A stretch of DNA of 64,000 nt. Source: Myxococcales bacterium (GTDB taxonomy: Bacteria; Myxococcota_A; Polyangia; Polyangiales; Polyangiaceae). Within the stretch, counting starts at the first letter, position 1; every line of letters starts with the position of its first letter. The translations under genes and the position numbers were made by a program. The stretch lies in contig JADJCA010000011.1 in assembly GCA_016703425.1 (NCBI GenBank), positions 122,050 through 186,049 of the forward strand, written 5' to 3'. Positions 1 through 14,235 of this stretch are shown here, piece by piece. The notes beneath the pieces were generated by a model that saw nothing but the letters and a program-made list of their open reading frames with translations, was not told the DNA's origin and ran no database searches.

Positions 1-249
1 CTCACGCCGCAGTCGCGCGTCGTCGACCTCTCGTGGGCGGTCAACGAGGGCGTCGTCCGCTTCTTCAGTCACTCGCCAAAAGCCGCCGCCAACCTCGCCG
101 AGCTGTTCGGCCGCACCTTCAAGGCCTTCGGCCTGGAGCTAGTCCCCGAATCGCCACACACCCTTCGGGCACGCCTCGGCCTCACGAAGAGCGAAGAGAG
201 CGCGTGGAAGTCGCTCGAGAGCTTGGTCTTGGCGCGAGAGGAGACCTGA
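1..249 (+). CDS. 3' end of an unidentified protein (partial; continues upstream of the window)
   Basis: Open frame from the window edge to TGA at 247-249 with high GC3. Its stop overlaps the GTG start of the next gene (TGAGTG), which suggests translational coupling. No family recognised. Confidence 0.3.
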   Translation, partial: LTPQSRVVDLSWAVNEGVVRFFSHSPKAAANLAELFGRTFKAFGLELVPESPHTLRARLGLTKSEESAWKSLESLVLAREET

Positions 250-915
250 GTGGATCTCGTCGATCAAATCGAGGGGCGACGGTTCGTCGGCCGCGAGTTT
301 CTGTTGTGGCTGTGGTTCGAGACCGAGATCTTCGAAGCGACGCTCGAAACCAAAGAGCACGGCGCCTTCGGCCTTTGGGTCGGGTCACGCATCGGCCTCT
401 CCGACCGCAAAGAGAGCACCGTCATCAAGGGCGCCGCGCCGGGCGCGCACCGCGAAGCAAAAGAGGCGCTCCTGCGCGGCAAGATGCCCGACACCATGGG
501 TTTCACCTTGTCGCGTGAAGACGGCGACGCCCGCTTCGTCCTGAAGGGCGAGACGCTCGGCCTCGTGGGCCTCGTGCTCCCTACCGTGCTCGGTGACGGC
601 GCCGAGGAGGAGGCCACCACCCTCGCGAAGCCGCCGCCCAAGAAGAAAGGGCGCGACCGTGATCGCGCCCGCGAAGAAGAGGCGGAGGCCGATGAGGCGG
701 CGGAAGCGTTTTACGAGCGCATGCAACTGGCGAAGACCATCGAAGACATCCTCGAAGCGCTCTTCCGCGACTTCACGGCGCTGCGTTTGAGCGACGCGTG
801 GTCACGGGGCGTTATGCCAAAGCTCGAGGCGTGGGCCGCCGGTGAAGACGTGGACGTCGACGGCTACCGAGCCGTGCGCGCCGCCCACGCGACGACCAAG
901 AAGAAGTCGAAGTGA
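250..915 (+). CDS. hypothetical protein with a Glu/Lys/Arg-rich low-complexity linker
   Basis: 221-aa ORF (GTG start) with high GC3 and balanced composition. Contains an FLLWLWFETE motif and a central KKKGRDRDRAREEEAEADEAAEA charged segment. No confident family assignment. Confidence 0.5.
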   Translation: MDLVDQIEGRRFVGREFLLWLWFETEIFEATLETKEHGAFGLWVGSRIGLSDRKESTVIKGAAPGAHREAKEALLRGKMPDTMGFTLSREDGDARFVLKGETLGLVGLVLPTVLGDGAEEEATTLAKPPPKKKGRDRDRAREEEAEADEAAEAFYERMQLAKTIEDILEALFRDFTALRLSDAWSRGVMPKLEAWAAGEDVDVDGYRAVRAAHATTKKKSK

Positions 916-964
916 GACCGAGCGGCGCGCGCTCTCCCGGTCGAGCCGCGTTAGACTCGGGCCG

Positions 965-3124
965 ATGACTGCCCCGATGGATCCGGCGCCGCGCATCGCC
1001 GAGGAGCTTCGGCTCCCGCCAGCCGGCGTACGCGCCGCGCTGCGGCTCCTCGGTGAGGGCGCGACCGTCGCGTTCATCGCGCGCTATCGCAAAGAGCAAA
1101 CCGGCGGACTCGACGAGGTGGCCATTGGGGCCATCGTCGACAAGCGCGACTACGTCGTGTCGCTGGAGCAACGGCGCGCCGTGATCCTCGAGGCCATCGC
1201 GGCGCAGGGAAAGCTCACGGCCGACCTCGAGCGCGCCATTCGCAGGACGTGGCTCAAGGCGGAGCTCGAAGATCTGTACCTGCCCTACAAGACGAAGCGG
1301 CGAACGCGCGCGTCGCAGGCGCGGGAGCGCGGCCTTCTGCCGCTGGCGAATCGACTCCTCGCGCAGCCGCCACAAGGCGACCCGCGCCGCGAGGCGGCGG
1401 CGTTCGTCGACGCCGCGAAAGACGTCCCCGACGTCGACGCCGCGCTCGCCGGTGCGCGAGACATCGTCGCTGAATTGGTAGCCGAGCAGCCCAGCGTGCG
1501 AGCGTTAGCGCGCTCACGCTTCGACCGCGAGGCCGTCGTGGAGTCGGTGGCCATCGCCGCGAAGACGAAGGCGCCCACCAAGTTCGAGGCCTACTACGAC
1601 TTCCAAGAGCGCGCGAAGACGATCCCGTCACATCGGTACTTGGCCATCGTTCGCGGCGAAGAAGAGGGCGTGCTCCGCGTCAAGGTTCGCATCGACGACG
1701 CGGCGTTGGCCGTCGAGATCGCCCCGGCGGCGGGCTTGCGGCGCGGCTCGCCCTTTGGCAAGGAACTCGAGGCTGCGCTGGCCGACGCAACGAAGCGCCT
1801 CCTCGTGCCGTCCATCGAATCGGACGTCCGGGCCGAGCTCAAGGAGCGGGCCGACCTGGGCGCCGTGGCCGTCTTCGCCGAGAACGTGTCGAAGCTACTC
1901 CTGGCGGCGCCGCTCGGGCGACGCGTGGTGCTCGGCATCGACCCGGGCCAGCGAACCGGCTGCAAGTGCGCCGTCGTCGATGACACGGGCAAGCTCGTCG
2001 CGCACACAAGGCTCCTGCTCGTGGGCGGCGCCGGTGCCCTCGAACAAGCGAAGCGCACCTTCGCCGAGCTCCTCGCGAGGCACCGGCCCCACGCCATCGC
2101 CGTTGGCAACGGGACCCACGGCCGCGAGACGGCCGACTTTTGCCGAGGCGAGCTCACCGCGGCGGGAAGGGCCGACGTCGTCGTGGTGCTCGTGAACGAG
2201 GCCGGCGCGAGCGTCTATTCGGCGAGCGAGGTCGCACGGGAGGAGTTCCCGGAGCTCGATCTCACGGTGCGCGGCGCCATCTCCATCGCGCGGCGCCTCC
2301 AAGATCCGCTCGCCGAGCTCGTGAAGATCGACCCGAAGGCCATCGGCGTGGGGCAGTACCAACACGACGTCGACCAGCCGACCCTCGCACGCAAGCTCGA
2401 CGAGGTCGTCGAACGCTGCGTAAACGCCGTGGGGGTCGAAGTGAACACCGCCAGCGCGCCGCTCTTGGCACGCGTCGCCGGCGTAGGGCCGTCTTTGGCA
2501 AAGAAGATCGTCGCGCATCGAGACAAGAGCGGCGCCTTTCGGTCGCGCCGAGATCTGCTCAAGGTCTCCGGCCTCGGTCCTAAGGCCTTCGAGCAGGCCG
2601 CCGGCTTCGTTCGCATTCGCGAGGGCACGCATCCGCTCGACGCGAGCGGCGTTCACCCCGAGCGATACGCGCTCGTGGAGCGCATCGCGAAGGAGCGCGG
2701 CGTCGAGCTGGCTACCCTCGTTGGCAACGAAGAGCTTGCGCGCGGCATCCCGTGGGCGAGCTACGCCAACGATGAAGTGGGCCCGCCAACGCTCGAGGAC
2801 ATCCAGCGCGAGGTGAGCAAGCCGGGGCGCGATCCACGAGAAACGTTCACGGCGCCGACGTTCCGCGACGACGTTCGTAAGCTCGAAGATGTGTCATCGG
2901 GCATGGTGCTGGAGGGTGTCGTCACGAACGTCACGGCTTTTGGCGCGTTCGTCGACGTTGGCGTCCATCAAGATGGACTCGTGCACGTCTCGCAGCTCGC
3001 CGACCGGTTCGTCAAAGATCCGCACGCCGTCGTTAAGGTCGGCGAGCGCGTGAAGGTGCGCGTCCTCGAGGTCGATCTCGCGCGCAAGCGGCTCGCGCTG
3101 TCCATGAAGCAGGCGCCGAAGTAG
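965..3124 (+). CDS. tex: transcription accessory protein Tex (YqgF/RuvC-like + HhH + C-terminal S1 domain)
   Basis: N-terminus IAEELRLPPAGVRAALRLLGEGATVAFIARYRKEQTGGLDEV matches the Tex start. GIDPGQRTGCKCAVVDDTGKL is the YqgF-like motif. C-terminal S1 domain: GMVLEGVVTNVTAFGAFVDVG...RVLEVDLARKRLALSMK. Start taken at the in-frame ATG 965 (MTAPMDPAP); the track start at 842 looks like an N-terminal over-extension. Confidence 0.85.
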   Translation: MTAPMDPAPRIAEELRLPPAGVRAALRLLGEGATVAFIARYRKEQTGGLDEVAIGAIVDKRDYVVSLEQRRAVILEAIAAQGKLTADLERAIRRTWLKAELEDLYLPYKTKRRTRASQARERGLLPLANRLLAQPPQGDPRREAAAFVDAAKDVPDVDAALAGARDIVAELVAEQPSVRALARSRFDREAVVESVAIAAKTKAPTKFEAYYDFQERAKTIPSHRYLAIVRGEEEGVLRVKVRIDDAALAVEIAPAAGLRRGSPFGKELEAALADATKRLLVPSIESDVRAELKERADLGAVAVFAENVSKLLLAAPLGRRVVLGIDPGQRTGCKCAVVDDTGKLVAHTRLLLVGGAGALEQAKRTFAELLARHRPHAIAVGNGTHGRETADFCRGELTAAGRADVVVVLVNEAGASVYSASEVAREEFPELDLTVRGAISIARRLQDPLAELVKIDPKAIGVGQYQHDVDQPTLARKLDEVVERCVNAVGVEVNTASAPLLARVAGVGPSLAKKIVAHRDKSGAFRSRRDLLKVSGLGPKAFEQAAGFVRIREGTHPLDASGVHPERYALVERIAKERGVELATLVGNEELARGIPWASYANDEVGPPTLEDIQREVSKPGRDPRETFTAPTFRDDVRKLEDVSSGMVLEGVVTNVTAFGAFVDVGVHQDGLVHVSQLADRFVKDPHAVVKVGERVKVRVLEVDLARKRLALSMKQAPK

Positions 3125-3126
3125 GG

Positions 3127-3873
3127 TCAGTTTTGGACGGCGGTGAAGCGCCAGGCGAGAGGGAACGTGGCGCCAACAAGCGGCTTTATCTCCACAACAT
3201 AGGGGAAAGCTGATTGCAGCGTCACGACCGGCGTCGCCACGCCGTTCACATAGAAGGTGGGCGCCACCGCACCGCTCCACTCCCAATTGAGGCCCGACGA
3301 GTTGCCCGGTATTTGGAAGCGGACGAAGTCGAGGTCGGCGGCGCTGGTCGCCGTGCCGCATATGGATCGCGTGCCGCCGATGGCCGTCGCAAGGGCCGCC
3401 GGCATCGGCGTGGCCGTGGCGAGGGTCCCGTTGGGTTCGACCTCAACGATGCCGTTGACGACCCCGACACCGCAGGGACCGATGCCCGAGTCAGCCGAAG
3501 CGTCGGCGCCATCGGCGCGCGCATCGCCGGGCGCATCCACGCGCGCGTCGCTCGGCGCGTCGAGTCGAGCATCACCGGCCGACGCGTCAGGGCCCGCCCC
3601 GTCAGACCCGAGGCCACCATCGCCGGTCGCGCTGTCGCTGACCACGGCGCCGTCATCGGACGCGCCATCGACGGCCGAGTCGTCATCAAGGCCACCGTCG
3701 CCGCCACCGCTCGCGCTGTCGCTGCCGTTGCCATCGGCCGACGCGCTGCCGTCGCCGCTGCTCGCCCCGTCGAGTGAACCCGCGTCGTGATCACTGGTCT
3801 GCCCCAACGTCCCCGCAGCGCCGCCGCACGCTGCGAGCGTCGCGAGCGCCGCCCAACCAAGCCAACGCCTCAT
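3127..3873 (-). CDS. secreted lipoprotein with periodic Asp/Ala-rich repeats (DARxDAP, GDG-S) and a C-terminal beta-rich domain
   Basis: Start set at the internal ATG (cat at 3871-3873), which gives MRRWLGWAALATLAACGG, a signal peptide plus LAAC lipobox. The 75 codons upstream in the track ORF are Arg-rich junk. The protein body is low-complexity D/A/S/G repeats followed by a hydrophobic beta-like C-terminus. Confidence 0.55.
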   Translation of the reverse strand: MRRWLGWAALATLAACGGAAGTLGQTSDHDAGSLDGASSGDGSASADGNGSDSASGGGDGGLDDDSAVDGASDDGAVVSDSATGDGGLGSDGAGPDASAGDARLDAPSDARVDAPGDARADGADASADSGIGPCGVGVVNGIVEVEPNGTLATATPMPAALATAIGGTRSICGTATSAADLDFVRFQIPGNSSGLNWEWSGAVAPTFYVNGVATPVVTLQSAFPYVVEIKPLVGATFPLAWRFTAVQN

Positions 3874-3979
3874 CCGCAAAGGCTCGCACGACCCCGCGCC
3901 GAATGAAAACGCTGCCGCACGTTCGCGGCCTCGACGAGGAGGGCGCCCGCCCACCCTGGCCGGTGGTGTGTGCGCCCGC

Positions 3980-4030
3980 TTGGTATGCTGCCCGTGCATG
4001 GCGCTCGGACCCGACGATCTCGCCTTCGTG
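3980..4030. repeat. 51-bp perfect direct repeat, copy 1 (identical to 5794..5844)
   Basis: TTGGTATGCTGCCCGTGCATGGCGCTCGGACCCGACGATCTCGCCTTCGTG read directly at both positions with no mismatch. Flanking bases differ immediately outside the repeat. Confidence 0.85.
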
Positions 4031-4111
4031 CCCGCGGTGAGCGCGGTCCACGAGGGCCACACGGGCGCCCGCTGCGTCCTTGTCAGTCGCCGCAGACGCA
4101 TTCGCGACTGA
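3998..4111 (+). pseudogene. 37-codon remnant ORF duplicating the first 11 codons of the downstream kinase gene (MALGPDDLAFV), then diverging
   Basis: ATG at 3998 lies inside repeat copy 1 and encodes MALGPDDLAFV, identical to the start of the 5812 gene. It continues PAVSAVHEGHTGARCVLVSRRRRIRD* with no similarity beyond the repeat. Confidence 0.4.
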
Positions 4112-5609
4112 GTATCAAGGCTACGGGCTCGTGTTCCCCTTCGTCGCCCCGAGCAGTGACGGGCGCGAAGCCGGACTCATAACGACCGCACCCTTTACTC
4201 GAGTCGCTTACTGGGGCGACTGCGTGCACGGTGATGGCGCCGCTGCCTTGCACCTTCATGTCAAACCGGCCCGCTGCATCCGTCACCGCCGTCGCGTCGA
4301 GCGCGCTGACCAGCGCGCCGGCACGAGGCGTTGGCGTTCGTGCCACATTAGGGCTCGGCGCGGCGGTGGTCATCACGACGCCGGTGACCCGCATCGTTCG
4401 CGAACTCGGTGCCCCACCGCGAAGCCGCACTGGCCCCTCATCGCCACGGCTGAACGACAACGTATGGACCCACCGCTGCCCACCGTGCTCACGCGCGAGC
4501 AGGGCGCTGCAGCGCCCCAACCCTATGGTCGCGCGCAGCGCGCCGCTCCGTGCGTCAAGCGTACGCAACACGCCTTCGTTGGTGCAGGCGAGCACGTCTT
4601 CGCCAAGGAGGGCGAGCGACTCCTGGGGCTCGCCCAAGGTGAGGTATGGCGCCGTTCGCCACATCACTTGCAGCGACGCCATATCGACAGCGAGCACACT
4701 CTCGAGAGCGCCAACGTTGAGCGCCGGGACGGCGGGCCCCGTCGTCACCTTGAGGTAGACGATGCCATCGCGGTGCGCGGCCCCGTGCGCCGAACCGACC
4801 TTGGTGCGGGCCCGCTCATGCCCGTTCGATGCATCGAGCGCGATGAGAGCGTCATCGGCTAGTACCGCGAGCGTGCCTCCGTGGGCGAAGAGCGCGGTAA
4901 GGTTCGGGAGGGCGGTTGACCACCGATCAATCCCGGTTCGCAAGTCGACCGCAACGAACCTGTCGTGATAACCGAGGTACGCCGCGTCTCCCGCGAGCCA
5001 CGTACCGACCCCCAGGCCCGGCGCACTCTTGGTCCAAAGAGTCGCGCCTGTCTGTGCGTCAAGCGCCACCACCCGTGGCAATACGGTCGATCGGGCATCC
5101 CCACCCACGAGAACCACCTCGGAATTGCCGACGACCCGCGGATGCGGCCGAAACGTCAGTTCACGGGTCCACCGCAGGATGAGCGAAGGGAGCGCGAACG
5201 CGTCGATGCGTCCCCCGGTCACAAGAAACGTCGATGGTCCAGCCACGATCGTCCCTGCGACGAACCGTTGTTCATCCGGGACGTCCATCGCGGCCACGAC
5301 GGTTTCTCCATCGCCTTCGGTGAGCAGGAGCCGGTCGCCCTCAACGTGTAGCAAGCGATCTCCCGCGGGGTGATGCCAATTCGGCCTCGACTCGACGGTC
5401 CAGCCTCGCGACGGCCCCACGACACCGCGGACGTGAGACCCGTACCCATTGGAGGCGATCCGCGTCGACGACACCCGCACCTGGGCCTGTGCGTTTGGTG
5501 GTGATCCGTTGGCGCCACAGGCGGAGAGTGGTGCCGTGAGCACAAGTCCGAGCAGTCCAACCGCTCGTTGAGCTCCGTTCGGAACGCTGCGCCTTAGTCG
5601 GTCGACCAT
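4083..5609 (-). CDS. PQQ-like beta-propeller repeat lipoprotein (BamB-like fold) with a C-terminal CarboxypepD_reg-like beta-sandwich
   Basis: N-terminal signal peptide with lipobox LSAC. Repeated ...TGATLWT.../...DLRTGIDRWST.../...ASLQVMWRT... blades typical of PQQ-propeller proteins. C-terminus AVTDAAGRFDMKVQGSGAITVHAV resembles carboxypeptidase regulatory-like domains. Confidence 0.75.
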   Translation of the reverse strand: MVDRLRRSVPNGAQRAVGLLGLVLTAPLSACGANGSPPNAQAQVRVSSTRIASNGYGSHVRGVVGPSRGWTVESRPNWHHPAGDRLLHVEGDRLLLTEGDGETVVAAMDVPDEQRFVAGTIVAGPSTFLVTGGRIDAFALPSLILRWTRELTFRPHPRVVGNSEVVLVGGDARSTVLPRVVALDAQTGATLWTKSAPGLGVGTWLAGDAAYLGYHDRFVAVDLRTGIDRWSTALPNLTALFAHGGTLAVLADDALIALDASNGHERARTKVGSAHGAAHRDGIVYLKVTTGPAVPALNVGALESVLAVDMASLQVMWRTAPYLTLGEPQESLALLGEDVLACTNEGVLRTLDARSGALRATIGLGRCSALLAREHGGQRWVHTLSFSRGDEGPVRLRGGAPSSRTMRVTGVVMTTAAPSPNVARTPTPRAGALVSALDATAVTDAAGRFDMKVQGSGAITVHAVAPVSDSSKGCGRYESGFAPVTARGDEGEHEPVALILSRECVCGD

Positions 5610-5793
5610 GTTGCCACGCCACTCGTCCTACCGCGCGCTGCCGGTCGAGCCAGGCGTTCGGCGCGGCGCGCGGAATACTTCTGACCCACCGCAACCGTGG
5701 GCGCTCACCAGGTGGTCAGATAACTTCCTCAGACGCGACCCTCGTTCACACCTCGCCGACGACAACGGCTCCCATCTCTTCTGGAACGCAGCG

Positions 5794-5844
5794 TTGGTAT
5801 GCTGCCCGTGCATGGCGCTCGGACCCGACGATCTCGCCTTCGTG
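5794..5844. repeat. 51-bp perfect direct repeat, copy 2 (identical to 3980..4030); spans the kinase gene start
   Basis: Exact copy of 3980..4030. It contains 18 bp of upstream sequence plus the ATG (5812) and codons 1-11 of the phosphotransferase gene. Confidence 0.85.
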
Positions 5845-6774
5845 GCTCGCGTGACTGGTGCGGAGCGTACGAGCGGCCCGGGAGAGCGGATTCAATCCCT
5901 GTGGGGCGGCTACGGCGAACTTGTGCGCGTTCGCCTCGTGGGCGCGCCGATGAACTCGGCCATCGTGAAGCGCGTTCGGGCGCCCCGGAGCCACGACGCC
6001 GATGGCCGTTCGCACGTGCGAAAGAAGCGTTCGTACGAGGTCGAGACCACCTGGTACCAAACGCTGGCGACGCGTTGCGACGAAACCTGCCGCGTGGCGA
6101 GGCTCTACGGAGCGACCCGCGCATCGGACGGCCACCTGCTTGTGCTTGAAGATCTCGACGACGCCGGCTTCGCGGGGCGGCGCACCGACGCGTCGCCGAA
6201 GGAGCGACGGACCTGCCTCGCGTGGCTCGCGGCGTTCCACGCGCTCTTTCTCCGCGTCCCGCCCGGCGATCTCTGGCGCGAAGGCACCTATTGGCACCTC
6301 GCCACGAGGCCCGACGAACTTCGCGCGACGGAAGACTTGCCGCTCCGCCGCGCGGCCCCGCACCTCGACGAACGGCTACGAAGCGCGAAGCACCAGACGC
6401 TCGTCCACGGCGACGCCAAGGAGGCGAACTTTTGTTTCTCGCGCCAAGGTGACGCGGTGGCGGCCGTGGACTTTCAATACGTCGGCGGCGGCGTGGGAGT
6501 GAAAGACGTCGCGTACCTCTTGAGCGACCTCGCCGGCGACGCGGCCGAACTCGAGTTCGTCGATGTGTACTTTGCACACTTACAGAGAGAGCTCTCGCGA
6601 CGCGGCCACGGGGCTTCGGCCGACCAGGTCGAAGGGGAGTGGCGCGCGCTCTATCCGGTCGCGCGGGCCGACTTTCACCGCTTCCTCGCCGGCTGGGCCA
6701 AAGACCATTGGCGCCGCGACGAAAAAGGGCGGCGCGTCACCGCAGCGTTCTTGCGCGCCGCGGGCCTCGACTGA
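5812..6774 (+). CDS. phosphotransferase-family kinase (APH/choline-kinase/EcKL-like fold)
   Basis: Start at the in-frame ATG 5812 (MALGPDDLAFV); the track ORF 5608.. carries an N-terminal extension. Brenner-type catalytic motif LVHGDAKEANFCF and Mg-binding VDFQYVGGGVGVKDVAYLL. Confidence 0.7.
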   Translation: MALGPDDLAFVARVTGAERTSGPGERIQSLWGGYGELVRVRLVGAPMNSAIVKRVRAPRSHDADGRSHVRKKRSYEVETTWYQTLATRCDETCRVARLYGATRASDGHLLVLEDLDDAGFAGRRTDASPKERRTCLAWLAAFHALFLRVPPGDLWREGTYWHLATRPDELRATEDLPLRRAAPHLDERLRSAKHQTLVHGDAKEANFCFSRQGDAVAAVDFQYVGGGVGVKDVAYLLSDLAGDAAELEFVDVYFAHLQRELSRRGHGASADQVEGEWRALYPVARADFHRFLAGWAKDHWRRDEKGRRVTAAFLRAAGLD

Positions 6775-6783
6775 CACGACGAT

Positions 6784-8655
6784 TCACTTGATCGGCGAGA
6801 CAACGACGCCGTTGATGGGTGCGGCTCCAGCTCCTGCGGGATACGCGTAGCTCACGTACGTGCTCGAGAACGCGCCGCTCGCCGCCGAGCCCCATCCCCA
6901 GACGGTGACGCCGAAGGGGCTCTTGCTGTGCATCTCGCGGCGACCGTTGTCGCACTGTCCTTGGGGTACGAAGTTGTTTCGAACGAGATCGGTGCGTGTG
7001 TATTCGTAGCGACCCTTCGTCCCGACGGGCATCCAACCGGTCAGCGGGCCCGCGCAGTCGAGGATCACGTCGTCGAAGCCAACGGAGCCGCGGCGACGAA
7101 CCACGACGAGGTTCGTCTCCGGGTAGGTCGGGTCCGCGAAGAAGACGTAGGAGTCGAGGTATTCGAGCGGCGGCACGACGTTCACGAACTCGGCGTCGCC
7201 GCGCCCGTCCTTGCCGCTCGGATCGTATTGCCCGGCGCCCGTCATGTGCGCCGAGAAGTAAAACGGATGGTCCGCGTCTTGGCTCTTCACGACGAAGGGC
7301 CCGGGCGAACGAAACTGCACGACTTGGCCCGGAGAGAGGCTGCTCGGCGCGCCCGCCGGCGGGCCCGGATCCCACTCGAGCGTGGTGCCAGGAACGGCCC
7401 CCATGAGCCGCCAAGGGGGCGCTTCTTCGTACTGATCGTAACGATTGCGATAGCGAACGCCGACGTACTCGCTGCCGAGCGCGCGAACGGGCGGGATCTG
7501 TTGATGCGAACTCTCACCGCAACAGGTGTCGATGGTCAGGCCCGTGTTGCCGCCCCAGACGCCGACGGGTTTGTTGGACGAAACGATGCTCCCCGCGAGC
7601 GACGCCGGCTGGACGAACTGCAACACCTGGCCGCGCTGGAGCGAATAGAGCGCCGGCGCGCCGGCCGGGGCTGCCGCGACGCCGGTGCCGCCGGCGATGG
7701 CGGCCTTGGGGTTCAACGTGATCTCGGTGCCGTCATCCTGTGCGGTGATGGCCACCACCGATTGCTCGACGGGGTTCGTTTGCCACGCGTCGATGGCCAC
7801 GTAGTTCGTGTCCCAGGCGGACGTCGGCAAGAGCAGCGTGGCGCTCGTGAGGGCGCTCGAACCGCCTCCGTAGGGGAACATGTCGTAGGCGACGACCGGC
7901 ACCGACGAGGTGATGCGAAAGGCGCGACCGATGCCGGTGCCGTGGAGCGCAGTGTCGCCGGCCACGGCCGCCGTGATGCTCGCGGGGCAGGCCGTGCCGG
8001 GGACCAGGCTCGGCGACTGCGACAGAAACAGGATGGCGACCTGCCCGGGCGGCACTTCGCCATTCGTGAGCGGTGCGTAGGTGATGTTCTTTCCTGAGCC
8101 CGAGGGCAGGTAGCCAAAGGTCGATGCATCGAGCGATTTGCCGTCGTGCTCCACCGTGAGCTTGGCGGGCGTCGTCCACGTGTTCGCCACGAACGTCGCG
8201 AAGCAACCGCCGGCAGCGGCAAAAATGACGTCGGGCTGAACCACGTAGTACTCGCAGCCCACGCTGCTCTTGGCGATGCGCGTGGCCTCGCAGGCAGGCG
8301 CACAGCCGGTCTCCGTGCAGCCTTCGTCGGCCGCGCAGGTGCGGATCACGTTCCCCGAACACTCGACGAACGTGTGCAGATCGCTCGAGCAGTGCGGCGC
8401 CGTGCAAAACGGATCGCCGAACTGCGCATCGGAGAACGCGGGCCCGGCGTCGACCGCCGGGGGTAACGATGCGTCGACCGCTCGCGACGACAGCTCGTCG
8501 CGCTGCGACGCGCCGCAACCAGCGGCCACCGCGGCCCAAGTCGTTAGCAACACAAGAGAGGCGCCGGCGAGCGTTCGCACGGAGGCTTCATGCCCCAATG
8601 GCCGGCGGGTGCCAATGCCAGACGACGTCTCGCGGCTTGCCGCGGGGCCCGCCAC
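6784..8655 (-). CDS. secreted Cys-rich lipoprotein, function unknown
   Basis: Long ORF with high GC3. The N-terminus contains ...VRTLAGASLVLLTTWAAVAAGCG (signal plus lipobox). A GTG at 8580 would give a cleaner signal peptide and may be the true start. Cys-rich N-terminal module (CTAPHCSSDL...CSGNVIRTCAADEGCTETGCAPAC). Confidence 0.6.
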   Translation of the reverse strand: MAGPAASRETSSGIGTRRPLGHEASVRTLAGASLVLLTTWAAVAAGCGASQRDELSSRAVDASLPPAVDAGPAFSDAQFGDPFCTAPHCSSDLHTFVECSGNVIRTCAADEGCTETGCAPACEATRIAKSSVGCEYYVVQPDVIFAAAGGCFATFVANTWTTPAKLTVEHDGKSLDASTFGYLPSGSGKNITYAPLTNGEVPPGQVAILFLSQSPSLVPGTACPASITAAVAGDTALHGTGIGRAFRITSSVPVVAYDMFPYGGGSSALTSATLLLPTSAWDTNYVAIDAWQTNPVEQSVVAITAQDDGTEITLNPKAAIAGGTGVAAAPAGAPALYSLQRGQVLQFVQPASLAGSIVSSNKPVGVWGGNTGLTIDTCCGESSHQQIPPVRALGSEYVGVRYRNRYDQYEEAPPWRLMGAVPGTTLEWDPGPPAGAPSSLSPGQVVQFRSPGPFVVKSQDADHPFYFSAHMTGAGQYDPSGKDGRGDAEFVNVVPPLEYLDSYVFFADPTYPETNLVVVRRRGSVGFDDVILDCAGPLTGWMPVGTKGRYEYTRTDLVRNNFVPQGQCDNGRREMHSKSPFGVTVWGWGSAASGAFSSTYVSYAYPAGAGAAPINGVVVSPIK

Positions 8656-8812
8656 GCGAGCGTCTCCCGCGCGAGAACCTCGGATCCGCTTCGATCCAAA
8701 CGTCCGGCGGCGGCGCTCCTTTCCTGCAGGATTTTTCGCGACTGAGCGGAGCTACGCGCGCTGGCATATGAGGTGCTGAGGTGTGGGCACAACCTCTTTC
8801 CGCGAGAGCCCC

Positions 8813-11461
8813 ATGAACCTCACTCGAATCCTCTTCGGCGTCACGGCCTTCGGCCTCATCGCGTGCACCAACGGGTGCTCGTCGACGGGCGACGACAGCG
8901 AAGAGAGCGACGACGCGCTCACGACGAGCCAGCCAGGCCAATGGGTCGTGGACCTGAAGAAGGTCGCGCTGCCCACGGACCGCGGCGGCTACGGTCGCTC
9001 GTCGCAGCTGTTCTTCGGCCTCGGGCCTGCCGAGTACCTGTGCAAGCCGGGCGAGCCCGCCGAGCAGTGCGCGCAAAAGCCCGCCTTGTGGGACCAGACG
9101 TTCCGCTTCGGCCCGGTCGCTGATGAAGCCGGCGTGGCGTTTCGAAAGCCCTTCGCGAACGACAAGGAGAACCCCGTCGTCAAGACCGCCGACGGCAAGA
9201 TCACCGGCCCGAAGGGCAAGGGGCTCAACATCATCCCGCTGCTCAAGAACACCGACCCGACCAAGCAGGTCTACCTGCGCCAGTGGCTAAAGAACGGCGA
9301 CGTGCTCGCGTTCTTCCACCCCGAGCAGTCGAGCATGCGCAACCTGATGGACCGTCGCGTGAGCCACGTGGCCATGCACTACGACTACAAGAGTCCGCTC
9401 AACGGCAAAGAGTACGTCCACCACATCGACAACCCGAACAACTACGGCCCCCGCTACAACTACCCGCCGAGCCGGAACATGCCGTTCCACGTCTTCCGGT
9501 TCCAGCCCAAGGGCATGGACGCGAAGAAGGCCGAGGCCTACGCGCTCGCGGCCCGCAACTGGGCCTTCTTGAACGACGACCTCTCGCCCTTCGCGGACTT
9601 CTTCGACCTTCAACTTCAGACGCAGCGCGACCTCAAGACGAAGTTCGTCGACAAGCTCCTCGCGGGCAGTGAGTCGGCGGAGGTCTATTGCTCCGGTCTC
9701 GCCTTCACGAACCTCAACCTGGGGACGAATCACCCGCTTAAGCCGGGCCTTCTGACCAAGGAATACAAGCGCGGCGAGACGGGCGAAACGTTCGCGCCTG
9801 GCGATTGCCAGAGCGGCAACGAGGACAAGTGCGTGCTCGCTCCGGCCAAGCTCGGTGGCGTCGAGGTCGCGTCGCTCGAGAGCCGAAACAAGCTCGTGGT
9901 GAACCCTTACACGACGGGCGAGCTTGCCACCCAGTGGCTCGACAACACCTACGGCGAGTTGCCGCTCGAAAAGCGGGCCGAGATCGCCGCAAAGCCGGAG
10001 ACCCAACAGCAGCTGGCCCAAGGCCTCTACAACGTTCAGTGGAGCGACGGCGACGGCAAGCCTGGCGACGCGGCGGCCACGGCGCCGCCGGCGGTGACCG
10101 CGACCGAGAACCTCAAGGCCTGGGGCGACGCCTACGGCGCAACGCTCGCGTGGAGCAAGGCCATGAAGGCCGGCGACCAAGCGGCCGCCGCTCTGGCGAC
10201 GCAGGCCTTCGTCGACGCTCATCAATTGAAGGCGAAGAGCGGCGAAGTGCTCGGCCTCGCGCAGCTCATCGAGAAGCATAACGCGGCGGTGCCGACGGGC
10301 GACGACGCCGAGAAGTGGATCGCCGTCGACGCGGCGAAGATGTCCGCGGCGCAGATCCTGAGGGCACTTGAGATCGCCCACGTCACCAACCGCTACGTGC
10401 CGCCGCGTATGTGGCTCGATACGGCCGACGACCACACGTTCTTGCCCAGCGGCTTCGACCCGCGCACCGAGAGCAAGGGCGACATGGTCTACGTGGGCAC
10501 GGTCATCAACTGCGAGCTCTTGGCCGCCACCGACGGCTCGTCGAAGGACGCGTGCGCGGTCGACGGCGCCGGCGTCGGCGCAGGCTCCGATCAGTTCAGC
10601 GAAGGCGGCGCCGACACGAGCACCTACGCGCACTACGCCGTGGCGAACGGCGCCGAGCGAACGCACCGACGCTTCGACGCTAGCACCGGACCCGAGCTCA
10701 TGGGGAAGGGAACCAAGATCACCGTCCGCGCCACGAGCTTCGAGATGAAGGACGTGAAGTTCCTTCTGCACACGCCCGATCTCTACGCCGAGGGCTTTCC
10801 TCAACACGTCAACGAACTGTTCGGGGCCCTTCCGCCCGAGGCGCTCCCCGCCGACGCCCGGCAAGCGGGCCTCCCAGCCCTCAGCGTCCGCGACTACGAC
10901 ACCGCGTGCACGGCCATGAACAAGGTCGCGAGAGCCCAACAGCGCCGCGGCTCCTGCGCGCCAAAACGCGCCATCGTGCTCGACGTCTCGAAGTCCGCTG
11001 AGGTCGCTCGCCGCGACGCGCGCGCCACCGCATCGGGCCCGGTCCCCGACGCCGTGTACACCTTCGACCTCACGAAGGTGTGCCGCATCACGAGCCACAC
11101 GGCGCGCACGATGAAGTGCCCCGTCGTCTCCCAGAAGGCCGACGGCTCAGGGTGGGACTTCGCCAACGTCAAGGACGTGGAGGTCAGCCGCTCGACCCAC
11201 GGGCTGGTGTCGACGACGATGGTCGACGTTGGCGCCACGGCGACCGGCCAAGCGCCTCAAGTCGATGCGTCGAACGCAAACAGCGAGCGCGACCAGCGCT
11301 CCTACGGCCTCTGCGCGGCCTGCGACGCCGGCGGCGGGCACTTCAACCAGTGGACCATCTCGATCCAGAACGAGGCGATCGCGACGCCGGCGCCCAATCC
11401 GACGCCAACGCCGACGCCCCCGCCGCCGCCGCCGGTTAACCCGTCGACGCCGGGCAAGTAG
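8813..11461 (+). CDS. large secreted lipoprotein (882 aa) with a Pro/Thr-rich C-terminal tail; function unknown
   Basis: Start at ATG 8813 gives MNLTRILFGVTAFGLIACTNGC (signal plus lipobox). Continuous high-GC3 frame to TAG 11461. C-terminus ATPAPNPTPTPTPPPPPPVNPSTPGK. No catalytic family recognised. Confidence 0.65.
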   Translation: MNLTRILFGVTAFGLIACTNGCSSTGDDSEESDDALTTSQPGQWVVDLKKVALPTDRGGYGRSSQLFFGLGPAEYLCKPGEPAEQCAQKPALWDQTFRFGPVADEAGVAFRKPFANDKENPVVKTADGKITGPKGKGLNIIPLLKNTDPTKQVYLRQWLKNGDVLAFFHPEQSSMRNLMDRRVSHVAMHYDYKSPLNGKEYVHHIDNPNNYGPRYNYPPSRNMPFHVFRFQPKGMDAKKAEAYALAARNWAFLNDDLSPFADFFDLQLQTQRDLKTKFVDKLLAGSESAEVYCSGLAFTNLNLGTNHPLKPGLLTKEYKRGETGETFAPGDCQSGNEDKCVLAPAKLGGVEVASLESRNKLVVNPYTTGELATQWLDNTYGELPLEKRAEIAAKPETQQQLAQGLYNVQWSDGDGKPGDAAATAPPAVTATENLKAWGDAYGATLAWSKAMKAGDQAAAALATQAFVDAHQLKAKSGEVLGLAQLIEKHNAAVPTGDDAEKWIAVDAAKMSAAQILRALEIAHVTNRYVPPRMWLDTADDHTFLPSGFDPRTESKGDMVYVGTVINCELLAATDGSSKDACAVDGAGVGAGSDQFSEGGADTSTYAHYAVANGAERTHRRFDASTGPELMGKGTKITVRATSFEMKDVKFLLHTPDLYAEGFPQHVNELFGALPPEALPADARQAGLPALSVRDYDTACTAMNKVARAQQRRGSCAPKRAIVLDVSKSAEVARRDARATASGPVPDAVYTFDLTKVCRITSHTARTMKCPVVSQKADGSGWDFANVKDVEVSRSTHGLVSTTMVDVGATATGQAPQVDASNANSERDQRSYGLCAACDAGGGHFNQWTISIQNEAIATPAPNPTPTPTPPPPPPVNPSTPGK

Positions 11462-11467
11462 ATCGAA

Positions 11468-11506
11468 AAGCTCGCCGAGGTTCGTCCTCGGCGAGCTTCT
11501 TTTTCC
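11468..11506. terminator. Rho-independent terminator hairpin between convergent genes
   Basis: AAGCTCGCCGAGG-ttcgt-CCTCGGCGAGCTT is a perfect 13-bp stem (11468-11480 / 11486-11498) followed by cTTTTTcc. It lies 7 nt after the TAG of the 8813 gene and 73 nt beyond the stop of the convergent 11579 gene. Confidence 0.6.
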
Positions 11507-11578
11507 TGGTGAAGTCAGCGTGGCGCGAACCAGCGCGCAACATGAGCCCCGCCATGCGCGAAGGCGCGCGACTTGCGA

Positions 11579-12001
11579 TTACTGAAGGGCCACGAGCTCG
11601 TCGCGACTCTTGACGACCTCGTCGTGGATCTCGACGAGCACCGCGCGCACGGAAGCCGACCATTCGCCCGTGAGGGCCGTCGCGAAACGCGACTCGAGCC
11701 GGGCCTGCGAAGCTTTGCACGCGGTGAGCACGTCGCCGGCGTTGGGCCCGGCCGCGAACATCATGGCACTCACGCGAGCTGCCCGGACTTCGCCAAGAAA
11801 CGACGCGCGAGCGCCCGGCACGCCACGAAGGGTGCGGCCCGCTTGCTGGAGCTCGGAGACGAAGTGGACGCGGCGTCGCGCGAGGCGCGCGAGCGGTGCG
11901 CGGCGCGATGGATCGAGTCGCTCGCCGCGGTCGAGCATGTGCTCGTCGTCGACACACGCCCGAAGGAGTGTGCGGAGTTGCCGGTTCATTGATTGCGCCA
12001 T
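11579..12001 (-). CDS. hypothetical protein (140 aa)
   Basis: Chosen over the antisense ORF 11573..11992 because codon-position GC is gene-like in this frame (GC1 about 77% > GC2 about 53%, GC3 high). An AAAGG Shine-Dalgarno sits 9 nt upstream of ATG 12001. The terminator hairpin lies downstream. No family recognised. Confidence 0.45.
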   Translation of the reverse strand: MAQSMNRQLRTLLRACVDDEHMLDRGERLDPSRRAPLARLARRRVHFVSELQQAGRTLRGVPGARASFLGEVRAARVSAMMFAAGPNAGDVLTACKASQARLESRFATALTGEWSASVRAVLVEIHDEVVKSRDELVALQ

Positions 12002-12672
12002 GCGAGTCGACCTTTCGTGGTGACTCGACGCGCGCGCTCTTGCGCGGGTTCATTGGAGCCGACCGCCGGCCCGCGCTCTCGCGCTCGACGGTCGGAAGGG
12101 AACATAGGCACGCTCCGCCGATCTCGCCTGAACATTCGCAGAAATCGTGACGCCGGGCTCCGCGCGAGGGCCGCCCATGCCCCGTCTCCGCGCGGAAAGC
12201 TTGCGGATCGAGGGCGATCCAAAGCCAGGCGCCGCCGGAGCTGTACCGCCGCGCTCCCACCGTGTGACACGACAGGCGACACGTCTGGCTGAGCCGGGCG
12301 CGAGTGGCGCTTTTTTCGTGTTTGCGCTCGTTTCGTCGGAGGTATTCCCGATCCATCCTCGGGCAGGCTCGGCCCGCTCCGGCGGCCGATTCTTCGGCAG
12401 ATCCGGCGCCGCGTCGTTGGCACCGTCCCTGCTCAGACCAAAGACATCATGAGCAGAGAGCTCCCGGACCTTGCACTCCTACGGCGACTCCGCGCCGGTT
12501 TGAGTGCCCACGAGCCAACGGTAACGGTCAGACCCATTGTGGTCGGGCGTGGTTACAACGCGTCCCAAAAGATGCGTGAAGACCTCGAGCTCATGGCCTG
12601 GTCGCTCTCGCGCTCCGGGCTCTTGCCCTGGTAGGGAGTCGACGCGAGACCCGCGCGCGAGAACGCCGGGCG

Positions 12673-14235
12673 CTAAAACGCGACGCCGGCGCCGACCGCA
12701 GCCCCGATCGTAAAACGCGGCTCGGTCCCCGAAGTCGTCGGCACGAGCAGCGAAGCGCCATCGGCACCAACGCTCATGAAGAGCGGGCCTGCAACGCGCC
12801 AGGAAGCACGGAGCAGCGCGCCAAGCCCGGCGCCGACGGCGCTCTTCGACTCGGATGTGACGAGCCCCGCAGCGGAGGCGCGCTCCGCGTCGATGCGCTC
12901 GAGGCGCTGGCCAATCCACTCCAGGACAGGTCCACCACCGGCGCGAAGCGTGATCGGCCCGATGGCGCCGCGCCACTCGATGTTGAGCGAAGCGCCCGCG
13001 GTCTTCTCGTCGACGCGTCGGGCCGCCGTATCCATGCGGCCGACGGCGCCGTGTACGCCCACGCCCATGGCCCAACCGTCGAAGCGCCGGTGGTAACGCA
13101 AGAAGCCTCGCTGGACGAGCCCCAACTCGAGCTGCACCGCCGGTGCGTAGAGCGCTTCGAGCTCATTCGGAGAAACGATGACGGCCCCGCCCTTCTGCGC
13201 CAGCGTCTCGAGCGCGACATCTCGAAAGTCCGACGGTCCAAGGGTGCGCTCCTCGCCGCGACCGAGCGTGACCTCGGCCGCACCGCCGCGCCCCGCCGCG
13301 CGACGTTGGACCACGTAAGCACCGGGGGCGAGCGCGAGGGAGACGCGACGATCGGCGGCGCTCCAGGCCTCCGAGAGGACGCGGCGCGAGCGGGGCTCGT
13401 AGACCAGGTATTGCGCGTCGGCGACTTGTGGGAGCACGAGCCGCGCCGTCATCGGCGTTGGCGTGGTCAGCACGACGGGCCCCGTTTCGCGGAGGTCGAG
13501 CTGCGCTGTGGGCCTTTGGAGCACGCCCGAGGCGCGCGCCGACCGAAAGAGCGTCTGGTGGTACGCGTAGTCGTAAGCCTCGGCCAGCGTCACGCGCCGA
13601 TCGGAGTCGGCGTCGGCGGCGCCGCGCAGGCCGCTCAACCAGTAGTGCGTAAAGACGCCTCCGCCCAGCTCGCGAGACTCTTGCGCCGGATCGCCCTCCG
13701 ACGACGCGTGGATCCACACCGTGCCGACGGCCGCGCCGGTGCCGTCGGGCAGCGCGACGGCGAAGGGCGCGTCTTGGCTCATGCCCTTTTCGCGTGTGTC
13801 ATCGTTGCGGCACGCGTCGAGGACCACGACGCGGAGGGCCGCCGGCACCTTGGCGACGCGGGCCGCTAGGTCCGACACGGCCATCGTCTCGGCAGCCAAA
13901 TGCAGGCGTTCGCGATCGCCGTGACCGCTGAAATAGAAGACGAGGCTCACCTCGTCGGGGCGCCGCGCTTGAGCCATCACGCGGGCCCGCTCGAGCGCCG
14001 CCGCGAGCTGGGCGCCGGTGGGCTCGTCGAGAAAGATGGCCGCGTCGGGGCGAACGCCGCCGATCTGACGAAAGACCTCCGAGACGCGCATCGCGTCGTC
14101 GCGTGCATACTGCAAAGGACGCTCGCTGGGCGCGCCGTAGCGGTGCCCCGCCGCGACGAGAATGCGCAGCGGCTCACCGTGCGCTGGAGACGCGACGAAG
14201 AGCCCTGCGAGCAGGCCTGCCGCGACGCGCTTCAT
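12673..14235 (-). CDS. caspase-domain (peptidase C14 / orthocaspase-like) secreted protein with a C-terminal beta-barrel-like domain
   Basis: Signal peptide MKRVAAGLLAGLFVASPAHG. His-Gly in SLVFYFSGHGD and Cys in VVVLDACRND form the caspase catalytic dyad. About 270 C-terminal residues rich in alternating hydrophobics end in ...GAAVGAGVAF, an OMP-like C-terminal Phe signature. The ATGA overlaps the stop of the upstream anti-sigma gene. Confidence 0.75.
   Translation of the reverse strand: MKRVAAGLLAGLFVASPAHGEPLRILVAAGHRYGAPSERPLQYARDDAMRVSEVFRQIGGVRPDAAIFLDEPTGAQLAAALERARVMAQARRPDEVSLVFYFSGHGDRERLHLAAETMAVSDLAARVAKVPAALRVVVLDACRNDDTREKGMSQDAPFAVALPDGTGAAVGTVWIHASSEGDPAQESRELGGGVFTHYWLSGLRGAADADSDRRVTLAEAYDYAYHQTLFRSARASGVLQRPTAQLDLRETGPVVLTTPTPMTARLVLPQVADAQYLVYEPRSRRVLSEAWSAADRRVSLALAPGAYVVQRRAAGRGGAAEVTLGRGEERTLGPSDFRDVALETLAQKGGAVIVSPNELEALYAPAVQLELGLVQRGFLRYHRRFDGWAMGVGVHGAVGRMDTAARRVDEKTAGASLNIEWRGAIGPITLRAGGGPVLEWIGQRLERIDAERASAAGLVTSESKSAVGAGLGALLRASWRVAGPLFMSVGADGASLLVPTTSGTEPRFTIGAAVGAGVAF

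Follow-up and report, generated by a model that had tools for sequence, protein, structure and literature searches.

An intact, foreign-looking orphan lipoprotein gene lies between two perfect copies of the 5' end of a phosphotransferase (kinase) gene in the 64,000-nucleotide stretch of myxobacterial DNA analysed here (the window), and strains that are nearly identical at this locus occur both with and without it. This presence-absence polymorphism and both junctions of the filled allele are real and not products of assembly. The locus is probably a case of 'insertion with long target duplication' in which a single gene was inserted and varies between strains.

The direct repeat TTGGTATGCTGCCCGTGCATGGCGCTCGGACCCGACGATCTCGCCTTCGTG occurs at 3980-4030 and 5794-5844 with a start-to-start spacing of 1814, and when up to three mismatches were allowed the 51-mer gave exactly two matches across the 64-kb window, as compared to none in 100 shuffles. 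Each copy comprises 18 nt followed by an ATG (at 3998 and 5812) and the first 11 codons of the kinase, MALGPDDLAFV. The 1,763 bp between the copies (4031-5793) contain one ORF with protein-family support, which fills 87% of the interval and is referred to below as the cargo gene. The ORF that starts in the upstream copy converges on the cargo gene and overlaps its last 29 nt (Table 1). These observations uphold an initial annotation of the sequence, which had described identical 51-mers with 18 bp, ATG and codons 1-11, a dead 37-codon ORF behind the upstream copy and a single opposite-strand gene nearly filling the 1.76 kb; the search it proposed for other such repeats, run across the 64 kb, returned no further perfect repeat of at least 28 nt.

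The kinase gene behind the downstream copy encodes a product identical to P0121, and its start position is consistent with that of its orthologues. The lipoprotein gene on the left flank is the kinase's divergent partner in empty-site genomes and adjoins the kinase in L071-L076. The native intergenic region between the two, 100% identical in L080 and L083, is now joined only to the relic (upstream) copy, and the insert segment 5610..5793 has come to lie directly upstream of the 18-nt leader kept by the kinase; this segment resembles neither the native intergenic region nor any other part of the window. Scanning the genome collection with the kinase protein gave 69 loci, none above 59% identity and none with the same local gene order. 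A ComEC homologue is also encoded within the window.

Table 1. Features of the filled locus, in window coordinates (a dot marks a feature given without strand).
Feature	Position	Strand	Basis
Left flank: 248-aa putative lipoprotein MBK6694705.1 (IPG50_21220)	3127..3873	-	ORF; no Pfam family; identical protein P0281
Native intergenic region upstream of kinase start	3874..3979	.	Aligns with empty-site relatives up to the repeat
Upstream 51-bp copy: 18 nt before ATG plus kinase codons 1-11	3980..4030	+	Sequence; L083 contig agrees
Extended -10-like motif TGGTATGCT, 8 nt ahead of ATG	3981..3989; again 5795-5803	+	Read from sequence; function putative
Relic 37-codon ORF MALGPDDLAFVPAVSAVHEGHTGARCVLVSRRRRIRD: kinase start, then junction and insert sequence	3998..4111	+	Sequence; no family match
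Imperfect extension of duplicated target, CCCGCGGTGAGCG	4031..4043	+	Comparison with 94% lineage kinase
Inserted DNA proper, about 1.75 kb; left limit uncertain by a few nt	4044..5793	.	Missing from L080 and L070-L078
Cargo: 508-aa lipoprotein; signal peptide with lipobox LSAC, BamB-like beta-propeller, C-terminal beta-sandwich	4083..5609	-	PF13360, E 4.8e-12
Non-coding 5' side of insert, upstream of cargo gene	5610..5793	.	Sequence
Downstream 51-bp copy, running on into intact kinase gene	5794..5844	+	Sequence; also in L079
Target: 320-aa EcKL/APH-family phosphotransferase MBK6694707.1, intact	5812..6774	+	PF02958 and PF01636

Empty and filled alleles were compared among protein-cluster members and their contigs. 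In L080, a strain 99.7-100% identical to the window, 4031-5793 is absent and the lipoprotein and kinase genes are adjacent, with a single 51-mer (contig positions 172-222) that is common to both flank alignments; the identity is 100% over 3809-4030 and 99.73% over 5794-7274. Likewise, a lineage of 94-97% identity (L070-L078), represented by ten contigs from at least eight samples, lacks the insert, shows the same gene adjacency and has one copy of the 51-mer. The initial annotation had seen in the repeat the footprint of an insertion, by a route other than an insertion sequence, which dropped a lipoprotein gene between a divergent gene pair, and had suggested looking for related genomes that lack 4031-5793 and retain a single 51-mer. 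Such genomes exist in L080 and in the ten contigs, and they support the footprint; the opposite pattern, an old shared arrangement with divergence inside the repeats, was not seen among the relatives.

The filled state was recovered from two further sources. L083, a contig of 2,021 nt from a different metagenome assembly, runs gapless through window positions 2665-4685, is 100% identical from 3686 on and confirms the upstream junction, and L079, from another MAG, shows insert, 51-mer and kinase at 99.9% identity and confirms the downstream one. An artefact of assembly or polishing in a MAG drawn from a mixed population would be compatible with the origin of the window, itself from a MAG, with the 40 nt of poly-C junk that L079 carries exactly at the expected place of the upstream copy, and with the occurrence of filled and empty alleles in related samples. 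However, this explanation of the repeat is scarcely credible, since L083 reads the upstream junction base for base, L079 repeats the downstream junction, nothing unusual marks the sequence over the two junctions, and the cargo ORF continues unbroken to its family-conserved C terminus.

Between the window and L079 the left flank diverges by 0.66% and the insert plus right flank by 0.08%, the insert being 100% identical save for one 1-nt gap. Near-identity of the insert despite this divergence of the left flanks points to recent spread. Divergence from the 94% lineage is patchy along the locus, a mosaic that would fit a recombining population. It could nevertheless be argued that the filled state is ancestral and that the empty genomes are deletion derivatives formed by recombination between the repeats, in which case loss rather than recent gain would be observed. 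A perfect 51-bp repeat is a good deletion substrate that would leave exactly the single copy of L080, and the kinase segment following the upstream copy is unlike the one following the downstream copy, so that the duplication may predate some of the diversification of the lineages. Still, creation of the repeat would require an insertion or duplication in any case, the 94-97% lineage is empty in ten contigs with no trace of the gene, the codon usage of the cargo is the most deviant in the window, and the insert is near-identical across the strains with diverged left flanks. An ancestral filled state is accordingly regarded as quite unlikely; L080 itself is either never filled or secondarily emptied.

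The foreign look of the cargo is evident from its composition and its distribution. Of 25 window genes, the cargo gene is lowest in GC3 (0.735, z -2.9) and furthest in codon-usage distance (codon bias B 0.374, z 3.3), and the comparison of codon usage with neighbouring genes proposed in the initial annotation thus singles it out as the most atypical. The ORF is full length by family alignment and closes with the family-conserved CxCG end. Its full-length homologues reach at most 41% identity, and in protein libraries of 5.8 billion and 1.84 billion entries matches above 41% are confined to the two filled MAGs; the empty lineages therefore lack the gene elsewhere in the sampled data as well. 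The donor of the insert was not found. A species in which the cargo is naturally a neighbour of the kinase was considered as donor and rejected, no cargo homologue being present in the 69 kinase loci, and contig L081, which holds a 41% homologue, shows a different context with no similar flanks and no flanking repeat.

The AlphaFold model of the cargo (pLDDT 75.8) has BamB structures as its best PDB matches, and the only significant family is the generic propeller-repeat PF13360 (PQQ_2). The scores against the NCBIfam BamB equivalogs are below cutoff (TIGR03300, 27.6 bits, cutoff 285; NF008351, 21.2 bits, cutoff 423), as is that against the quinoprotein dehydrogenase TIGR03075 (16.2 bits, cutoff 480). 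An assignment as BamB proper was rejected on these scores, together with the extra C-terminal domain and the placement in a small separate family; in the model its fold resembles that of BamB. A PQQ-dependent dehydrogenase was likewise set aside, the TIGR03075 threshold not being reached. Of the earlier label 'PQQ-propeller lipoprotein', the lipoprotein propeller stands, and 'PQQ' survives only as the name of the Pfam family.

The duplicated segment appears to extend beyond the perfect repeat. The 13 nt that follow the upstream copy, CCCGCGGTGAGCG, agree at 11/13 positions with GCCGCGGTGACCG, which continues the kinase in the 94% lineage, as against only 6/13 for the window's own downstream continuation, GCTCGCGTGACTG; the comparison was anchored post hoc, and its chance probability is roughly 1e-4 before correction. 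From this match the target duplication was probably about 64 bp originally, stemming from a kinase allele unlike the window's own. A duplication reaching past 4043 was rejected, as gapped local alignment performed no better than shuffles (285/2000).

Both copies contain an extended -10-like motif. The 94% lineage has TGCTATGCT in place of TGGTATGCT, the sole difference falling on a free position, and Kofleriaceae orthologues show TAnGCT 3-5 nt ahead of a GTG start. In a consensus scan neither a sigma-70 two-hexamer promoter nor an intrinsic terminator was found. The repeat may thus be viewed as duplicated target DNA holding a putative -10-like promoter core. Because it has just 18 nt of upstream sequence, with a -10-like motif and no -35 region, duplication of a promoter core is something that we infer; the earlier claim of a duplicated promoter and start held for the start and codons 1-11, and did not hold for the promoter. 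An inverted-repeat recombinase core within the repeat (GGTATGC...GCATGGC) was also considered and set aside, since a spacer free to vary, separating the -10-like box from the ATG, explains its variable positions more simply.

Searches for mobile-element features gave no candidate. No transposase or integrase domain was detected in the 37 ORFs scanned across the window, and the ends of the insert have no significant terminal inverted repeats (best 8 nt, no better than 46-71/500 shuffles) and no visible repeated arm-type motifs. No second copy of the insert was found in the window, nor any tRNA or tmRNA target or Rfam family. Likewise, the 81 nt at 4020-4100, which cover the 52-nt 3' flank of the cargo, gave no attC-like fold better than shuffles (z -1.14). 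Taking as criterion a short target duplication of about 2-14 bp, terminal inverted repeats, and a transposase or multiple copies, an insertion sequence, DNA transposon or MITE was rejected on the lack of inverted repeats, transposase and second window copy and on a duplication of at least 51 bp. An integrase-carrying element (prophage, ICE or IME) was rejected because the insert's only family-supported ORF is the lipoprotein and the window ORFs include no integrase domain, and an integron gene cassette because neither an attC-like fold nor a nearby integrase is present.

A different case would be a site-specific integrative element surviving as a remnant or satellite, like a cis-mobilizable element, with the kinase 5' end as attB, the 51-mers as attL and attR, its own copy of the target-gene start, and an integrase encoded elsewhere that integrates and excises it. 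Such an element would account for perfect direct repeats that overlap a gene end yet do not disrupt the gene, and for the precise empty sites. Regions of attP usually show imperfect target-like sequence beyond the repeat, and imperfect target-like sequence is present at 4031-4043, on the element side of the left repeat. Moreover, contig L082 continues with a different sequence behind the first 29-31 nt of this kinase 5' segment, and the variant leader of this contig is also present in L084. However, the tail of L082, just 105 nt long, may come from a chimeric contig end, neither it nor the 51-mer has a match in the JGI metagenome or viral-contig collections, the 1.76-kb insert and the scanned window ORFs are devoid of integrases, and tRNA or tmRNA target, arm-type motifs and terminal inverted repeats are all lacking. 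An integrative element is on balance an unlikely source.

L082 and L084 possibly represent a third allele at the same spot. The junction in L082, with another sequence behind the kinase 5' segment, hints that the site may be preferred, which would speak against random illegitimate insertion. The contig end of L084 at 4008 was considered as a repeat boundary and rejected, as an A/G polymorphism at 4009 explains it. It is doubtful that the first 30-50 nt of the kinase serve as a reusable docking site at which single-gene cargoes come, go and are exchanged with no element-encoded recombinase; the BamB-like gene would be one such cargo, and a gene represented by its 3' end in L082 another. In that case, long target duplication would accompany a general, site-preferring route of gene insertion and mobility in large recombining myxobacterial genomes, reaching beyond restriction-modification genes.

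In the preferred reading of a single-gene insertion with long target duplication, a foreign segment of about 1.75 kb with one complete BamB-like lipoprotein gene would have joined the kinase 5' end by illegitimate recombination, with no transposase or integrase involved. About 64 bp of target sequence would have been duplicated in the joining step, 51 of which have remained identical in the two copies, and the chemistry of this step may have been staggered-break repair, end joining or template switching. The event was probably single and may have occurred in a related strain whose kinase allele was like that of the 94% lineage just past codon 11. As the duplicated segment spans the -10-like core through codon 11, the kinase gene is intact behind the insert, and the original promoter region would have been left with the dead 37-codon stub, reading antisense into the end of the cargo gene. 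The filled allele could then have moved among close strains by ordinary homologous recombination via its flanks, and the 51-bp repeats would allow precise loss through repeat-by-repeat recombination or slippage. Flank-mediated spread together with repeat-mediated loss would explain why filled and exactly empty alleles coexist in strains at least 99.7% identical; the direction of the later gains and losses is likewise one that we infer.

The usual accounts of bacterial gene gain involve phages, plasmids, transposons and integrases; here a complete foreign gene appears to have arrived without any of these, and near-identical wild strains preserve the filled allele as well as the exactly empty one. 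The duplication also shows how an insertion at a gene start may be tolerated, as the promoter core and start codon stay with the gene and an orphan promoter points into the newcomer, provided that the -10-like motif acts as presumed. Although modest by itself, the case offers a clean natural example for testing the origin of long target duplications.

Compared with known systems, the locus shares with cis-mobilizable elements and integrative islands the perfect direct repeats overlapping a gene end and the precise empty sites, but it has no integrase or recombination module in the insert or the 37 window ORFs, and its target is not a tRNA. The E. coli H47 island is likewise bounded by direct repeats and recombinase-less, being excised by host functions; in contrast to the single-gene 1.76-kb insert with 51-bp perfect repeats described here, it is a multi-gene island of 13 kb whose long repeats are imperfect and contain four homology blocks, and its mobility was demonstrated by PCR (PMC5426353). 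Recombination between short direct repeats that is independent of RecA is treated in the same source. A further comparison is with homology-facilitated illegitimate recombination in the course of DNA uptake (de Vries and Wackernagel 2002, cited in PMC2884548 and PMC3240628), in which, as in the present case, foreign DNA lies beside homology, the far junction is illegitimate and mobile-element genes are lacking; the ComEC homologue in the window is a further point of likeness. However, its events, as cited there, usually delete or replace recipient DNA, whereas here 51-64 bp are duplicated, and the donor arrangement that it needs, with the insert already beside the kinase start, was not found in the 69 orthologous loci. 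In Salmonella Typhimurium the 2.56-kb wzy (rfc) locus lies between 113-bp perfect direct repeats, and natural precise deletions leave one copy; experiments there demonstrated excision, reversion and a circular form, and re-acquisition from neighbouring cells was proposed (PMC12074656). Identical flanking repeats, a precise single-copy empty state and the lack of an encoded recombinase are common to both loci. The wzy repeats are, however, intergenic and their mobility was demonstrated by experiment, whereas the repeats described here overlap a gene start and were characterised from sequence.

The mode of insertion is already known in kind. For restriction-modification gene units, Nobusato et al. 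reportedly observed insertion with long target duplication in 2000. It has been described for such units, with direct repeats of 46-423 bp, by Furuta, Abe and Kobayashi 2010 (PMC2853133), and according to the legends of their Fig. 3 the repeats in H. influenzae extend 15 and 2 bp into the 3' ends of the flanking genes. Their criteria were absence from a close collinear relative, repeats above 30 bp corresponding to one copy in the empty site, a length below 20 kb, no mobility gene and a repeat unique in the genome. The present locus has a close empty relative with collinear flanks, a 51-bp repeat corresponding to one copy, a 1,763-bp insert and no mobility gene; uniqueness of the repeat was checked within the 64-kb window, where it occurs twice, and the JGI and viral collections, where it is absent. 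Both are small, strain-variable gene units with direct repeats above 30 bp and no mobility gene, often of atypical composition; the published repeats are not dispersed elements, nor is the present one within the window. Here, in contrast, the host is an uncultured myxobacterium, the duplication covers the 5' end of the target together with a probable promoter core, and the cargo is a BamB-like lipoprotein rather than a restriction-modification unit, so that the idea of Furuta et al. of cargo-made DNA breaks as driver cannot apply. For a class catalogued mainly from restriction-modification genes, with the cargo's own DNA cutting as the suspected driver, a lipoprotein cargo would mean that the host alone suffices.

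The 51-bp direct repeat reported in the initial annotation (TTGGTATGCTGCCCGTGCATGGCGCTCGGACCCGACGATCTCGCCTTCGTG, hereafter the 51-mer) was confirmed as two copies with zero mismatches between them, each consisting of 18 nt followed by an ATG and ten more codons (MALGPDDLAFV). Searching the 64-kb window with up to three mismatches returned these two matches, against none in 100 shuffles, and further perfect repeats of ≥28 nt were not found within the window. The claimed 37-codon ORF does follow the upstream copy, and between the copies lie 1,763 bp with a single ORF that has protein-family support, the opposite-strand gene noted earlier (hereafter the cargo), which leaves 52 nt of the insert past its stop codon and 184 nt ahead of its start codon. 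Beyond the left lipoprotein gene lies tex, and to the right of the phosphotransferase (kinase) gene a gene with an IgGFc_binding domain. In several Flavobacteriaceae (L017, L021, L028, L033, L069) a tex homologue is likewise found 2-10 kb from the orthologous kinase gene; no such linkage was seen in the myxobacterial relatives at 50-59% identity.

Features of the repeat-flanked insertion and of the sequence following each 51-mer
Feature	Coordinates	Strand	Description
Left lipoprotein gene (MBK6694705.1, IPG50_21220)	3127-3873	-	248 aa, divergent from kinase
51-mer, upstream copy	3980-4030		
Relic ORF	stop at 4111	+	37 codons; starts in upstream 51-mer
13 nt after upstream 51-mer	4031-4043		CCCGCGGTGAGCG
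Cargo (NCBI protein P0128)	4083-5609	-	508 aa, Pfam PQQ_2, E 4.8e-12
51-mer, downstream copy	5794-5844		
13 nt after downstream 51-mer			GCTCGCGTGACTG; 6/13 match to upstream copy
13 nt after 51-mer, kinase continuation of 94% lineage			GCCGCGGTGACCG; 11/13 match to upstream copy
Kinase gene (MBK6694707.1)	5812-6774	+	320-aa phosphotransferase, Pfam EcKL and APH; starts in downstream 51-mer

A scan of species-representative genomes with the kinase yielded relatives of ≤59% identity, with no gene order in common. Close relatives were taken from protein clusters (the 90% cluster of the kinase comprises eight sequences), and five kinds of allele were read from contigs carrying kinase-cluster members or variants of the left lipoprotein. 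In contigs of 94-97% identity (L070-L078, at least eight samples; the 94% lineage) the order is tex, lipoprotein, kinase and IgGFc gene, with no gene between lipoprotein and kinase. Window positions 3000-4043 and 5794-7000 both align to this lineage, overlapping in one 64-nt stretch of the relative, and its single 51-mer has three differences from that of the window, at 3983, 3995 and 4009. An exact empty site from a near-identical strain was provided by L080, which SPAdes assembled from another sample as a contig of 1,652 nt with one perfect 51-mer; it is 100% identical to window 3809-4030 and, from the 51-mer onward, 99.73% identical to 5794-7274. As the final k-mer of SPAdes usually exceeds the 51 bp of the repeat, this contig presumably rests on reads truly spanning the 51-mer. 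The alignment to related genomes that the initial annotation had proposed hence returned both L080 and the 94% lineage without 4031-5793 and with a single 51-mer. The empty state of L080 may mean that the site was never filled, or that it was emptied by recombination between the repeats.

The filled allele was recovered from two further assemblies. L083 (2,021 nt, another metagenome assembly) covers window 2665-4685 free of gaps, and its 13 mismatches all fall within 2784-3685, so that identity is unbroken from the intergenic region through the upstream 51-mer and the junction into 650 nt of insert. L079 (MAG GCA_964269505.1) carries the insert, the downstream 51-mer and the kinase at 99.9% identity to the window; here 40 nt of poly-C/T (L079:8401-8440) replace 294 nt (window 3957-4250) that include the upstream 51-mer as well as the 3' end of the cargo. 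Since L083 shares this left-flank allele and its junction is intact, the poly-C/T stretch in this public genome is an artefact of assembly; gene calls at this stretch merge the cargo and lipoprotein ORFs. The possibility that the repeat itself is an assembly artefact was dismissed because both filled-allele junctions are independently reproduced, upstream in L083 and downstream in L079.

Among 25 window genes, the cargo has the lowest GC3 (0.735; mean 0.839, z -2.9), and its codon usage lies farthest from the pool (B 0.374, z 3.3). This codon-usage comparison, suggested in the initial annotation, points on compositional grounds to acquisition from a different genome. Only two MAG proteins close to the cargo were retrieved by a word-indexed search of 5.8 billion sequences, the next-best matches covering a quarter of the protein at up to 35% identity, and HMMER, run exhaustively over 1.84 billion cluster representatives, gave a handful of full-length homologues (best 41% identity). 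These are all high-GC and lipoprotein-like with a conserved C-x-C-G end, and the cargo gene is complete as judged by its sharing of this end. The 508-aa product begins with a signal peptide and a lipobox (LSAC), both conserved in the family homologues and both missing from the 423-aa NCBI model, which uses an internal start codon. The AlphaFold model (pLDDT 75.8, pTM 0.76) consists of a beta-propeller followed by a beta-sandwich, with BamB as the best PDB matches. Assignment as BamB or as a PQQ-dehydrogenase was rejected, the family thresholds being missed by a wide margin, and the supportable label is a BamB-like propeller lipoprotein of unknown function.

Perfect identity of the two copies ends at 4030/5844. 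The 11/13 match between the upstream copy and the 94% lineage over the following positions has a chance probability of ~1e-4 at an anchored position, before correction for the length having been chosen post hoc, and nothing significant was found past 4043. From this resemblance, the duplicated target was probably ~64 bp long and derived from a kinase allele unlike the present downstream allele. The window lineage's own variants, including TTGG, are present in both 51-mer copies, and at 3970-3984 this lineage is missing 8 nt (CTCATTGC) of the 94% lineage (GCTTGGCTCATTGCTATGC vs GCTTGGTATGC). As the first four bases of the repeat (TTGG) arise only via this deletion, the deletion is older than the duplication. 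Comparison of window 5794-8700 with L071 of the 94% lineage gave ~10% divergence over the initial 400 nt of the kinase gene, <1% over the next 600 nt and again ~10% in the adjoining IgGFc_binding gene, a mosaic that indicates frequent homologous exchange between the two lineages. Relative to L079, the window diverges by 0.66% left of the insert (1-3956) and by 0.08% across the insert and 11 kb rightward (4251-16773); nine of the differences cluster at 3441-3685, where the left lipoprotein gene is of low complexity and rich in Gly, Ser and Asp codons. This pattern suggests that either a recombination boundary or a hypervariable segment lies beside the insertion. The simplest reading is that a single duplicative insertion occurred in a related strain, that the filled allele would have spread through its flanks by homologous recombination, and that the segment past the downstream 51-mer would later have been swapped by allelic recombination. 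The length of the perfect repeat would then reflect where the alleles first differ rather than the original event.

The initial annotation also held that the promoter had been duplicated, and of this at most a -10-like core stands. The repeat starts one base ahead of TGGTATGCT (3981-3989), which matches the extended -10 pattern TGnTAnnnT, while neither copy shows an evident -35-like hexamer and a consensus scan gave no promoter. The ATG lies 8 nt after the motif, and the predicted transcript would thus be nearly leaderless. The 94% lineage counterpart (TGCTATGCT) differs at the free position only, the remaining variable 51-mer positions are either synonymous within a codon or part of the spacer that precedes the ATG, and Kofleriaceae orthologues have TAnGCT 3-5 nt ahead of a GTG start. 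These observations fit, none of them decisively, a putative promoter core of the kinase. If the motif works, the duplication accounts for the kinase tolerating loss of its former upstream region, and the upstream copy would drive the 37-codon relic as well as transcription that enters the cargo antisense over its last 29 nt and continues beyond.

Regarding the nature of the insert, no second gene and no terminal inverted repeats were found in it (best match 8 nt, equalled in 46-71 of 500 shuffles), nor other copies of its ends or of the cargo gene within the 64-kb window. Folding of the stretch containing the insert 3' flank revealed nothing notable, and tRNA, tmRNA and Rfam searches gave no matches. 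Integrase or transposase domains were absent from all 37 ORFs scanned across the 64 kb; these ORFs are of housekeeping type, with dnaK, pcnB, fabH and a homologue of comEC among them. In the ~12-16 kb comparable with the 94% lineage, the other gaps listed within aligned blocks are only 3-6 nt. Transposon, integron cassette and integrase-bearing element were each tested by their class criteria on the insert and the 64-kb window and rejected. Elsewhere in the window, the ComEC/Rec2-type DNA-uptake channel gene (41212-43713; Competence and metallo-beta-lactamase domains) is compatible with uptake of free DNA by the organism and is no proof regarding the insertion. A gene for an MbnB/TglH/ChrH-type RiPP precursor-modification enzyme (48805-50250, E 5e-75) adjoins two large ORFs without Pfam matches, one with a Pro-rich repeat (47011-47069), and the region 45576-50250 may be a peptide natural-product locus.

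The insert may also be a cis-mobilizable element with an integrase supplied from a distant locus, a reading that gains some weight from L082. This contig tracks the window to ~4010, except that 1 nt is deleted and two are substituted in the spacer from the TATGCT box to the ATG; the same leader variant recurs in L084, from a different sample, which stops at 4008. In both contigs the kinase 5' segment is thus of a third haplotype (TTGGTATGCTGC-GGCGCATGGCGCTCGGAC; L082:1-140, L084:1-30, window ~3980-4010). The 105-nt tail of L082 encodes the C-terminal end of a minus-strand ORF (terminating in DPAERPASAREVLAELGG and a stop) and had no match in the sequences available for comparison. L082 could represent a third allele, in which other DNA was inserted at this same site, or its tail could be the end of a chimeric contig; such an allele is the one feature that could raise the importance of the finding.

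In combination, the strain-polymorphic insert, its empty and filled alleles and the lack of integrase or transposase among the 37 ORFs support the insertion footprint proposed in the initial annotation. The anatomy agrees with insertion with long target duplication as defined by Furuta, Abe and Kobayashi (PMC2853133), uniqueness of the repeat having been checked here in the 64-kb window. The published cases have repeats of 46-423 bp and all carry restriction-modification cargoes, for which DNA breakage by the cargo is the suspected driver (PMC2853133); this cannot apply here, where the cargo is a lipoprotein gene. The 2.56-kb Salmonella wzy locus lies between 113-bp perfect repeats and shows precise natural deletions and a detectable circle with no known recombinase (PMC12074656), and the recombinase-less E. 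coli H47 island excises via flanking repeats independently of RecA (PMC5426353). Homology-facilitated illegitimate recombination, as outlined in PMC2884548, is a further relative, although it normally replaces recipient DNA, which here is duplicated. The locus gives a clean case, polymorphic between strains, of a way of gaining genes that is known but poorly understood; the kind of cargo and the host are new.
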